Positions 60,508-64,000 of a DNA stretch of 64,000 nucleotides are shown piece after piece (position 1 is the stretch's first letter; each line of letters begins with the position of its first letter). Below the pieces are notes generated by a model that saw only the letters and a list, made by a program, of their open reading frames with translations, had not been told where the DNA came from and made no database searches. The translations under genes were made by a program, and so were the position numbers. Source of the stretch: Escherichia coli (lineage in GTDB: Bacteria; Pseudomonadota; Gammaproteobacteria; Enterobacterales; Enterobacteriaceae); the NCBI RefSeq assembly GCF_030013595.1, contig NZ_CP122768.1. The stretch is one strand, 5' to 3'.

Positions 60508-60914
60508 GTGAAAAGGTGGTGTTCAGTCAACTGAGCCGTAAATTTATTGATGAGAACGATGCCACGCCCGCCGAGGCGCAGCAGGTGGTCTATTACAGCC
60601 TGGCGATTGGTCACCACCTTGGGGTTATCGATTGCCTGGAAGCGGCGCTCACCTGTCCGTGGGATGAATATCTGGCATGGATTGCCACTCTGGAGGCGGG
60701 CAGCGAAGCCCGCCGCAAAATGGAAGGCGTGCCGAAATATGGTGAGATTGTCATCGACATTAACCATGTGCCGATGCTGGCCAACGCATTCGATAAAGCC
60801 CGGGCAGCGCAAACTTCGCAGCAGAAGGAATGGAGTACAATGCTGTTAAGTATGCTGCATGATATTCATCAGGAAAACGCCATCTATTTGATGGTGAGGA
60901 GATTGCGTGACTGA
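60504..60914 (+). CDS. hycH: Formate hydrogenlyase maturation protein HycH
   Basis: 136-aa ORF, operon position. Confidence 0.9.
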
Positions 60915-61377
60915 CGTTTTACTCTGTGTTGGCAATAGCATGATGGGCGATGATGGCGCAGGCCCGCTACTGGCGGAAAAGTGCGCCGCCGCGCCGAAAG
61001 GTCACTGGGTGGTGATTGACGGCGGTAGTGCACCGGAAAACGACATTGTCGCTATTCGCGAACTGCGCCCGACACGACTGCTGATTGTCGACGCCACGGA
61101 TATGGGGCTAAACCCCGGCGAGATCCGCATCATCGATCCGGATGATATCGCCGAGATGTTTATGATGACTACCCATAACATGCCGTTGAACTACCTTATC
61201 GACCAGTTAAAAGAAGACATTGGCGAAGTGATTTTCCTCGGCATCCAGCCGGATATCGTCGGCTTTTACTACCCGATGACCCAGCCGATTAAAGATGCGG
61301 TAGAAACCGTTTATCAACGACTGGAAGGCTGGGAAGGGAATGGCGGATTCGCGCAGTTAGCGGTGGAAGAAGAGTAG
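60907..61377 (+). CDS. hycI: Hydrogenase 3 maturation endopeptidase
   Basis: 156-aa [25 protein letters not shown]... Confidence 0.92.
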   Translation: MTDVLLCVGNSMMGDDGAGPLLAEKCAAAPKGHWVVIDGGSAPENDIVAIRELRPTRLLIVDATDMGLNPGEIRIIDPDDIAEMFMMTTHNMPLNYLIDQLKEDIGEVIFLGIQPDIVGFYYPMTQPIKDAVETVYQRLEGWEGNGGFAQLAVEEE

Positions 61378-61401
61378 TTTTTCAGTAAGGAATTCAGGGG
61401 A

Positions 61402-62175
61402 TTGAACATCAGAACAGGGATGTGCGCTTTTTTATTGAGCTTAGTGCTGCCTGCACAGGCCACCAGCTTTACCGAATATCTGCCGATGAGTGACAGCGAA
61501 TACGCGCAAAAGCGGGCGCTGAAACCTCTCCTGACCATGCCTTATGATGCCGAGCAAAACTGGCATTTTAGAAAAGTCGGCGTTGCTGGCGTGACGCTTG
61601 AAAAGATGCCAAATGATGATAGTGAATGGCAATTGAACGGTAAAGATCGCGCCGGTAAATCCTGGTCTGTGCCTGTGGGGGTGCTGCAAAATATGGCGGG
61701 TAATGCGCAACTTTACCGTGCCGATCTTGATCGTAACGGCATTCAGGATCTAGTTATCTGGCGGGGTATTTCAGGAAATGGTCTGGCACCTAACGCGTTT
61801 TTGATTCTGATGACCTTTAATCAGCAAGGTCGCCCGTGTGTTTTTCAGTCCGATGGTTTTTATACCGCAAGTGAAACTGGCATTGATGATTTGCTGGATT
61901 TACAAAGGAATGGCCACACGCAATTGCTGGATATGCAGTTTGATTCCGGTTACTGGATAACCAGTCTGTATCAGGTAAAAGACGCCAAATGGCAGCGTGT
62001 TCACGGCTGGTTTGGCAAGTTAAGCTATCCCGCGCTCACGCGTTTTACTTATACCCCCAACCGTAAACTCGTCCTCAAACCCATCGCCGGGCGCGACCCG
62101 CAATCGGAAGATCTGGCGCTGACGCAGCGTTGCTTGATAAAGGGGGATGTGCTTTATGGGGTGAATCAGAACTGA
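61402..62175 (+). CDS. Uncharacterised exported protein (predicted signal peptide, no recognisable domain); start may be TTG 61402 or ATG 61420
   Basis: 257-codon ORF with E. coli-like codon usage; N-terminus MNIRTGMCAFLLSLVLPAQA|TSF looks like a Sec signal peptide; begins 25 bp after hycI stop with no intervening hairpin. Confidence 0.55.
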   Translation: MNIRTGMCAFLLSLVLPAQATSFTEYLPMSDSEYAQKRALKPLLTMPYDAEQNWHFRKVGVAGVTLEKMPNDDSEWQLNGKDRAGKSWSVPVGVLQNMAGNAQLYRADLDRNGIQDLVIWRGISGNGLAPNAFLILMTFNQQGRPCVFQSDGFYTASETGIDDLLDLQRNGHTQLLDMQFDSGYWITSLYQVKDAKWQRVHGWFGKLSYPALTRFTYTPNRKLVLKPIAGRDPQSEDLALTQRCLIKGDVLYGVNQN

Positions 62176-62237
62176 CTTTTTGCAGAGTGGCTATGTGGAT
62201 TTTGGGGGTAATTATATAGCGTACAAGTGTTTACATA

Positions 62238-62266
62238 TTGTGAACTTTGATTTGATGAGCTATAGT
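62238..62266 (+). promoter_or_regulatory. Candidate sigma70 promoter for the higB-like gene (TTGTGA-N17-TATAGT)
   Basis: -35 at 62238..62243, 17-bp spacer, -10 at 62261..62266, about 70 nt upstream of the toxin ATG. Confidence 0.35.
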
Positions 62267-62336
62267 TTCCGAACACATAAGGATAGAACTCGCAGATGTG
62301 GCTGTTTACTTACTATAAGGAAGTTAAAACTTAAAA

Positions 62337-62648
62337 ATGCACATCATTTCTAAAGCGCCATTTGAAGAGTGTGCGCGCAAATATCCTAACGACGCTCTGG
62401 CTCTACACTCATTGTATCGGGTTATTAAGGAAACGGATTTTTCTACACCAGAAGAAATGCGAACGGCGTTTCCCAACCTCGACAATTTTAGATATCGCAA
62501 CAAATGGTACGTTCTGGATGTCGGCGGGAACAATCTTAGGGTTATTGCCTACATAAACTTTGTTAATAAGCGGTTCTTTGTGAAGCACATAACGAATCAC
62601 GCAGAGTATGACAAACTGACACGTTACTACAGAGAGAACAAAGAATGA
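62337..62648 (+). CDS. HigB-like toxin (RelE/ParE superfamily mRNA interferase)
   Basis: 103-aa MHIISKAPFEECARKYPNDALALHSLYRVIKETDFSTPEEMRTAFPNLDNFRYRNKWYVLDVGGNNLRVIAYINFVNKRFFVKHITNHAEYDKL...; shares the FP.LDNF...VGGN.LRV...H.EYD pattern of E. coli HigB as I recall it. Confidence 0.75.
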   Translation: MHIISKAPFEECARKYPNDALALHSLYRVIKETDFSTPEEMRTAFPNLDNFRYRNKWYVLDVGGNNLRVIAYINFVNKRFFVKHITNHAEYDKLTRYYRENKE

Positions 62649-63064
62649 CTGCTAATGCTGCACGCGCTGTTAAAGCAACAAGAGAACTGGTCAATGCAGT
62701 CCCCTTTCTGGGAGGTAGTGACTCAGAAGATGATTATCGTGAAGCACTGGAACTGGTCGAATATTTGATTGAAGAAGATGACACCAATCCACTTATCGAC
62801 TTTCTGGCGAGCCGCATTGCAGAGTATGAAAGCAACAACGAAAAGTTTGCAGAGTTCGACAAAGCCGTTGCTGCAATGCCGGTTGGCGTGGCGTTACTTC
62901 GTACGCTGATTGATCAACATAATCTGACCTACGCGGATTTGAAGAACGAAATCGGCTCTAAATCCCTGGTCAGTCAGATTTTGTCTGGGCAACGATCCCT
63001 GACGATATCCCACATTAAGGCACTTTCAGCCCGATTTGGTGTTAAGCCGGAATGGTTTCTTTGA
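62645..63064 (+). CDS. HigA-like antitoxin (XRE-family HTH at C-terminus)
   Basis: 139-aa ORF overlapping toxin stop by 4 bp; C-terminal HTH LTYADLKNEIGSKSLVSQILSGQRSLTISHIKALSARFGV; N-terminal APFLGG...ALELVEYL like HigA. Confidence 0.75.
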   Translation: MTANAARAVKATRELVNAVPFLGGSDSEDDYREALELVEYLIEEDDTNPLIDFLASRIAEYESNNEKFAEFDKAVAAMPVGVALLRTLIDQHNLTYADLKNEIGSKSLVSQILSGQRSLTISHIKALSARFGVKPEWFL

Positions 63065-63090
63065 TTTTGACTGATGCCAAACCCAAGATT

Positions 63091-63120
63091 GCCCGATGCG
63101 CAACGCTTATCGGGCTTTCT
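63091..63120. terminator. Hairpin between convergent higA-like gene and ascB (gcccgat...atcgggc tttctt)
   Basis: 7-bp GC-rich stem with 11-nt loop and T-rich tail. Confidence 0.4.
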
Positions 63121-63142
63121 TGGTTCGTGCGACGGTAGTTAC

Positions 63143-64000
<858 letters not shown>

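Follow-up and report, generated by a model that had tools for sequence, protein, structure and literature searches.

Toxin-first (T/A) gene order is the arrangement listed for type II toxin-antitoxin (TA) modules with a PF09907 toxin (PMC11980606), and in the Escherichia coli K-12 representative HigB cleaves translated mRNA only, with HigA autoregulating the operon and Lon mediating its induction (PMC2814082). Defence by the PD-lambda-2 system, whose HigA-like helix-turn-helix (HTH) domain continues into a C-terminal peptidase, also requires a third gene, which is P4-antitoxin-like (Vassallo et al., 2022; PMC9519451). Among envelope proteins, PliI, X-Tfi, and Tsi1 have been proposed to constitute one distant class of peptidoglycan-hydrolase inhibitors (PMC10933484). 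Here we compare with these systems the hycI-ascB junction in a 64,000-nucleotide (nt) stretch of the E. coli contig NZ_CP122768.1 (assembly GCF_030013595.1; hereafter the window, whose coordinates are used throughout). The hycI stop (61377) is separated from that of ascB (63143) by three open reading frames (ORFs), all on the + strand, viz., one for a putatively exported protein of 257 amino acids (aa), termed ORF257 in this report, followed by a higB-higA pair. An initial annotation of this DNA had read the three as a ~1.75-kb insertion forming a compact cassette and a candidate undescribed system; the ORFs are present as it described them, and in our assessment the interval very probably comprises two independent elements, namely, an ancestral ORF257 and a canonical, decaying higBA inserted behind it.

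The independence of the two elements is apparent from their distribution across 5,426 complete E. coli genomes. The whole interval, with all three genes, is at least 80% covered in 747 of these; ORF257 attains this coverage in 1,462 genomes and in 837 has just a shorter match, spanning roughly the initial 164 nt in the rows sampled, and full-length higB and higA are found in 1,091 and 2,508 genomes, respectively. Six junction states were each read directly in examples, and comprise, beside the complete arrangement, ORF257 with an orphan higA (~590 genomes), ORF257 only (~150, e.g., L029), higBA only (~300, e.g., L004), an ORF257 stub with an orphan higA (~840), and an empty junction (about half of the genomes), the sizes of these latter classes being estimates from an even sample of 60 rows. 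The spacer between hycI and ascB in the K-12 lineage (DH10B) is 158 bp long and gene-free. The initial annotation was thus right in that K-12 lacks all three ORFs and that they are accessory and polymorphic in E. coli rather than core genes.

Comparisons across genera indicate that ORF257 (61402..62175, + strand) was the first of the two elements at this junction. Its identity to the orthologs in E. albertii, Salmonella, and Klebsiella spallanzanii is 60-89%, with the order hycI, ORF257 ortholog, hydN, hypF in Salmonella (a 26-nt gap after hycI) and hycI, symE, ORF257 ortholog, parD, parE, symE, ascB in K. spallanzanii (L010 4422-6814). tblastn searches of species-representative genomes further place the ortholog immediately 3' of hycI in E. 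whittamii, E. albertii, Escherichia sp. MOD1-EC7003, E. coli E69, and Phytobacter diazotrophicus, and in the genomes so placed it is followed by hydN or ascB, never by higBA. In Escherichia and Salmonella the two genes are co-oriented and separated by 24-27 nt (24 nt in the window). The ratio of nonsynonymous to synonymous substitution rates (dN/dS, Nei-Gojobori) of ORF257 is 0.17-0.23 in seven of seven comparisons, against 0.01-0.06 for hycI, and we therefore take ORF257 to be a real gene under purifying selection. Judging from this synteny, it is an ancestral gene that was lost in K-12 rather than gained in the window strain, and would have been vertically inherited behind hycI since before the split of Escherichia, Salmonella, Klebsiella, and Phytobacter.

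The K-12 spacer retains a remnant of the gene: it reads cagggATGttc|ttgatggggtgaaccagctcTGA, i.e., the first codons of ORF257 fused to its last ~8 codons. As the join sits within GGGATGT, which is found at both ends of ORF257, K-12 carries a repeat-mediated deletion of this gene. The corresponding 9-bp direct repeat in the window, GGGATGTGC (both copies on the + strand), has its left copy at 61417..61425, where the K-12-type deletion joins, and its right copy at 62144..62152, which reads GGGATGTTC in the allele from which K-12 derives; L029, an E. coli with an intact ORF257 and no higBA, has the same 3' end as the K-12 remnant. Hence, the description of the interval as an insertion holds for the higBA part and fails for ORF257, and, since the extra DNA relative to K-12 is in part a K-12 deletion, that strain is a poor reference for the ancestral gene order here. 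An intact ORF257 is missing from ~73% of the E. coli genomes.

ORF257 has two candidate starts, the TTG at 61402 and the ATG at 61420, the RefSeq call, which would give a 251-aa protein. A second E. coli allele (L008) has an ATG at the position of the TTG codon of the window, and RefSeq calls the start there; because of this, the longer TTG start is the more likely one. The two alleles (window 61680-61900 versus L008) are near-identical at their ends and diverged over codons ~76-170, where the proportion of synonymous differences (pS) reaches up to 0.8 with a nonsynonymous-to-synonymous ratio (pN/pS) of ~0.25, a divergence like that between genera. This suggests that the central segment might be an old imported recombinant, rather than a product of positive selection. 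The ortholog of the E. albertii type strain NBRC 107761 (L018 6001-6770) is frameshifted, with a single base missing and its match split over two frames, and in other E. albertii entries it is intact at 251 aa. The K. spallanzanii ortholog lies between two SymE_toxin genes together with a ParD/ParE pair, and the hycI-ascB junction has therefore collected unrelated TA genes in another genus. A 1,647-bp contig labelled 'MAG: Collinsella sp.' (metagenome-assembled genome [MAG]; L014) codes for proteins 96-99% identical to E. coli hycI, ORF257, higA, and ascB, and is almost certainly E. coli contamination of a metagenome bin. Likewise, the 343-aa Salmonella enterica entry A0A633HV03 of the AlphaFold Database (AFDB), named 'Hydrogenase 3 maturation protease', matches the ORF257 fold at 74% identity over 188 columns and resembles a fused HycI-ORF call, arising from a true frameshift or from an annotation artefact.

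The second element is the higBA pair. Its first gene, higB (62337..62648, + strand), codes for a 103-aa toxin that matches the Pfam HigB_toxin profile (PF09907, E=1.2e-22, model positions 4-73 of 74), and its second, higA (62645..63064, + strand), for a 139-aa antitoxin with a C-terminal Xre-type HTH (HTH_3, E=8e-9), the start of which overlaps the higB stop (ATGA). The toxin is 38% identical to K-12 HigB/YgjN over 99 aa (PDB 5IFG_A, E=1.8e-21) and the antitoxin aligns end-to-end, over residues 9-138, with K-12 HigA/YgjM (PDB 5IFG_B, E=2.6e-35). With the toxin profile, the adjacent Xre-HTH antitoxin, and the T/A order all present, the pair is by profile and gene order a canonical type II TA module of the HigB(PF09907)/HigA type. 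The toxin-first HigB/HigA-like pair of the initial annotation was accordingly recognized correctly; however, as a plain family member already named by RefSeq, it does not make an undescribed system. By homology to K-12 HigBA we infer the same mechanism, in which HigB would act as a ribosome-dependent mRNA endonuclease, and HigA would bind and neutralise it and repress the operon via its HTH. No experimental test of the hycI-ascB higBA was found in the literature searched.

Upstream of higB, a putative sigma-70-like promoter for higBA (TTGTGA-17-TATAGT, 62238..62266, + strand) was picked out as a consensus match. It is overlapped by an imperfect palindrome, TGTTTACA-tat-TGTGAAC (62228..62245, + strand), seen by eye; a search for exact inverted repeats upstream of higB returned none. 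Since this palindrome is the sole upstream stretch kept in L004, whose higB leader otherwise differs, we consider it a candidate HigA operator. In both the window and L008 the AAGGAAG Shine-Dalgarno sequence is set further from the higB ATG by eight extra bases (aaacttaa; 62317-62339): the spacing is 13 nt, compared with 5 nt for L004, which has higBA only, and the longer spacing might lower toxin translation.

The junction alignment across E. coli genomes delimits an inserted 899-bp segment (62176..63074, + strand) that begins directly after the ORF257 stop. Sites without the insertion (L029, K-12, and Salmonella) read TGA|TGCCA (TGA|TGCCAAA in L029; L007 has TAGCA), and at precisely this point the window has 899 extra bases relative to L029. 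ACTGA occurs at both boundaries of the insertion (62171-62175 and 63070-63074); no terminal inverted repeats, recombinase, or other mobile-element hallmarks were found around the segment, only the ACTGA and weak 20-nt repeats. The GC content is 41-42% over the higB half, 48-50% over ORF257, and 53-60% over the hyc genes. The coding part of higBA matches 541 plasmid records at 60-80% DNA identity (70-73% for the best matches listed), of which 467 are from Klebsiella and others from Cronobacter, Salmonella, Enterobacter, and Leclercia; one Cronobacter phage likewise matches at 70-73%. The module is thus probably of plasmid origin and would have entered right after the ORF257 stop in a part of E. 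coli.

Once in place, higBA seems to have followed the path expected for a chromosomal TA module, with the toxin being repeatedly deleted and the intact antitoxin kept. Among the genomes sampled, higB is always accompanied by higA, with no toxin seen without its antitoxin, which lends indirect support to the predicted toxicity of HigB and its rescue by HigA, and higA alone is retained in ~1,417 genomes; the same HigA protein (WP_000126294.1) occurs in both paired and orphan contexts, and at least three different deletions, as read from the junction alignment, removed higB. On these junction states the module is decaying in E. coli. The junction thereby offers a natural series of TA decay, in which roughly one E. 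coli genome in four keeps an identical antitoxin, that could be used to study why orphan antitoxins are retained, e.g., for anti-addiction against related plasmid higBA. In E. coli AVS0225 (L006 1700-3814) the whole asc operon is absent, and the order is hycI, a 61-aa ORF257 stub, an orphan higA, an opposite-strand gene for a 145-aa hypothetical protein, and hydN.

The left flank of the interval, hycI (60907..61377, + strand), is the last named gene of the hyc (formate hydrogenlyase [FHL]) operon, and the right flank is the 3' part of the convergent ascB (63143..63985, - strand), as given by the ORF list and by the RefSeq annotation of E. coli HCP5S3_I2, a strain from pig faeces that is 99.9% identical to the window in the junction region. 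RefSeq there orders the genes as hycI, a hypothetical protein (251 aa, ATG 61420), a HigB family toxin, an HTH domain protein, and ascB. A strong hairpin at 63083..63123 (-24.7 kcal/mol on the + strand, and -28.4 for the - strand fold of 63066-63142; z = -3.6; none of 200 shuffles as stable) is shared by every junction variant and is likely a bidirectional terminator serving hyc/ORF257/higBA as well as ascB. It is the sole strong hairpin, with none between hycI and ORF257 (61370-61425) or between ORF257 and higB, and an Rfam scan of 61000-63400 gave no matches. Because no hairpin separates ORF257 from hycI, ORF257 is probably transcribed by read-through of the hyc operon; read-through from the hyc promoter is at least plausible from this layout. 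K-12-type junctions carry a repetitive extragenic palindromic (REP) element beside the terminator, which the window lacks. In some E. coli (NZ_CP118601, NZ_CP098211) a gene for the transposase of the IS110-like insertion sequence IS621 is annotated at the same junction; our guess is that IS621 sits in that REP element.

The cassette proposed by the initial annotation, in which the three genes would form one functional accessory unit with the exported protein working alongside the TA pair, draws on their adjacency and shared orientation ahead of one terminator hairpin in the window strain, on their co-occurrence in the 747 genomes, and on the matches of HigB and HigA to the PADLOC profiles PD-Lambda-2_A (E=1.9e-15) and PD-Lambda-2_B (E=3.8e-14). 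However, seven other taxa and the ~150 E. coli genomes have ORF257 behind hycI but no higBA there, higBA occurs without ORF257 in the ~300, the GC content differs between the parts, and the K. spallanzanii ortholog stands beside a different TA set (parDE, symE); moreover, ORF257 itself has no PADLOC match. The independent distributions of ORF257 and higBA largely refute such a unit, and we consider it very improbable. The same PADLOC matches could instead suggest that the chief role of higBA on its own is abortive infection against phages, comparable to that of the HigB-containing PD-lambda-2, and phage defence is a function of some TA systems (PMC9519451). On the other side, the window HigA covers only positions 9-115 of 402 in PD-Lambda-2_B, corresponding to the shared HTH part, the locus lies outside any defence island, and the toxin is lost with the antitoxin kept in the ~1,417 genomes; a mainly anti-phage role is hence unlikely, by a good measure.

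ORF257 merits attention in its own right. Its N-terminus is basic, then hydrophobic, and ends in A-Q-A, a pattern shared by its homologs with small residues at the end, and can be read as a putative Sec signal peptide, MNIRTGMCAFLLSLVLPAQA / TSF (61402..61461, + strand); UniProt entries name it 'periplasmic or exported protein'. It gave no match in NCBIfam, Pfam (even at E<=10), or PADLOC, bearing out the view of the initial annotation that this is an exported protein without a nameable domain, and a PDB sequence search with the family profile returned a chance match only (E=0.64). A profile search against a database of 1.84 billion representative proteins recovered 518 clusters (50% identity) at E<=1e-3, 101 of them at E<=1e-30. 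Across 51 sequences D108, D116, W185, Y190, and P210 are invariant, and further conserved features include YLP(L/M), GYW.T.LY, PL.TRFT, and two D-x-D-x-[DN]-G-x-x-[DEQ] loops. The first of these in the window protein, DLDRNGIQD (a D-x-D-x-N-G-x-x-D loop, residues 108-116; 61723..61749, + strand), resembles the FG-GAP/integrin calcium-binding motif, and the second, DLQRNGHTQ (residues 166-174; 61897..61923, + strand), is a degenerate copy; the motif can be recognised by eye. FG-GAP_3 was detected weakly among the 51 homologs (E<=0.001 in 2, E<=0.1 in 21) and in the window protein not at all. Most family members are 330-360 aa long, with an extra ~90-aa C-terminal domain ending in C.PE..WA; set beside them, the enterobacterial ORF257 is, by sequence comparison, a stable short version of the family. 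A Bryobacterales MAG (L021 2028-3691) codes for two tandem paralogs that are 34% and 37% identical to the window protein.

An AlphaFold2 model of ORF257 built from the 51-sequence alignment is all-beta, compact, and confident (predicted local distance difference test score, pLDDT, 91.9; predicted template-modelling score, pTM, 0.87), and was used in place of an earlier one from an 11-sequence input, which left residues 200-257 unmodelled. Names of the AFDB relatives include 'periplasmic or exported protein', 'FG-GAP repeat', and 'VCBS repeat-containing protein'. In the comparison of ORF257 with known proteins, the values were 6.9-7.8 for PliI-Ah, a periplasmic i-type lysozyme inhibitor, 6.5-7.1 for the FG-GAP propeller lectin PVL, 5.7-6.3 for X-Tfi XAC2610, 5.2-6.1 for CarG, and 4.6 for Tsi1. 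Given the proposed inhibitor class of PliI, X-Tfi, and Tsi1, our preferred guess, and a tentative one, is that ORF257 may perhaps be a periplasmic inhibitor or immunity-like binder of the PliI/X-Tfi/Tsi1 fold type that blocks a peptidoglycan hydrolase. If so, its targets would be a host or invertebrate lysozyme or the secreted effector of a rival, and the presence and absence of the gene, as well as its two diverged central alleles, would reflect that conflict. Literature searches on RefSeq protein accessions, guessed Salmonella locus tags, and hycI plus higA returned nothing relevant.

Other readings of ORF257 have to be weighed against this guess. K-12 makes an active FHL and serves as a standard FHL model. 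The maintained position 24-27 nt behind hycI in Escherichia and Salmonella, with no hairpin in between, along with purifying selection would suit a tenth hyc-operon gene tied to FHL or to fermentative growth; yet an essential role in FHL is argued against because K-12, that standard model, lacks the gene, as do ~73% of E. coli in intact form, and homologs outside Enterobacteriaceae are not near hydrogenase genes, with symE even separating the ortholog from hycI in K. spallanzanii. We regard such a role as unlikely. ORF257 could also have become functionless in E. coli, as what is left of a truncated ~345-aa protein heading for loss, considering that the C-terminal domain of the wider family is missing from it and that the gene is disrupted, by deletion, truncation, or frameshift, in the majority of E. 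coli genomes as well as in the E. albertii type strain. Nevertheless, the short form is length-conserved across genera, dN/dS is ~0.2 even between Escherichia and Klebsiella, and the AlphaFold2 model is compact and confident, so that a remnant is rather improbable. The fullest form of our own reading combines several steps: ORF257 would found an unnamed exported FG-GAP-like family, whose short hyc-linked form would be a periplasmic peptidoglycan-hydrolase inhibitor of the orphan immunity type expressed together with FHL in the anaerobic gut. As a whole this chain is doubtful. Several points also weigh against our main account of ORF257 and higBA: the PliI match in Pfam is found in just one of 51 homologs and is weak (E=0.027); the enterobacterial protein lacks the ~90-aa C-terminal domain of its distant homologs, and their neighbourhoods are not conserved (glyoxalase, response regulator, metallo-beta-lactamase; most contigs are short), so that function is not transferable from context; the ACTGA on either side of the insertion, at just 5 bp, could have arisen by chance; the higBA promoter match is no better than those in shuffled sequence, which has as many sites; sizes of the junction classes beyond those directly counted are estimates from the 60-row sample; and higB toxicity, ORF257 export, and co-transcription are all inferred. 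With the single cassette set aside, what interest the locus retains comes from the ORF257 family and from the natural TA-decay series. ORF257 is a real, conserved, and uncharacterised protein, predicted to be exported, that is hyc-linked across genera and merits a family entry of the DUF (domain of unknown function) type.

Returning to the known systems, the PliI-type inhibitors (PF16743) are at most candidate fold relatives of ORF257, and the window protein has no profile match to them at E<=10. FG-GAP/VCBS repeat proteins (PF13517, PF01839) share with it the D-x-D-x-[DN]-G-x-x-D loops, and the model also appears to resemble the PVL lectin and the integrin alpha propellers of this group. ORF257, however, has only two such loops and no closed seven-blade propeller, and lacks a Pfam match of its own. 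As for higBA, PD-lambda-2 is similarly arranged, its first gene being HigB-like and its second opening with a HigA-like HTH. Yet PD-lambda-2B runs to ~400 positions with a C-terminal peptidase, whereas the window HigA is a 139-aa protein in which Pfam detected no peptidase domain, and there is no third partner, as the DNA from higA to the terminator or ascB contains no additional ORF and ORF257 is blank in PADLOC. With the HigA match confined to 9-115 of 402 positions, and both the peptidase fusion and the third gene absent, we reject an identity with PD-lambda-2. The K-12 HigB-HigA (YgjN-YgjM) pair is likewise toxin-first with overlapping genes and has products of 104 and 138 aa, against 103 and 139 aa here, the likeness between the toxins extending to the GGN.LRV and H.EYD stretches; the window pair differs from it in being a paralog situated at hycI-ascB rather than at the ygjNM locus.

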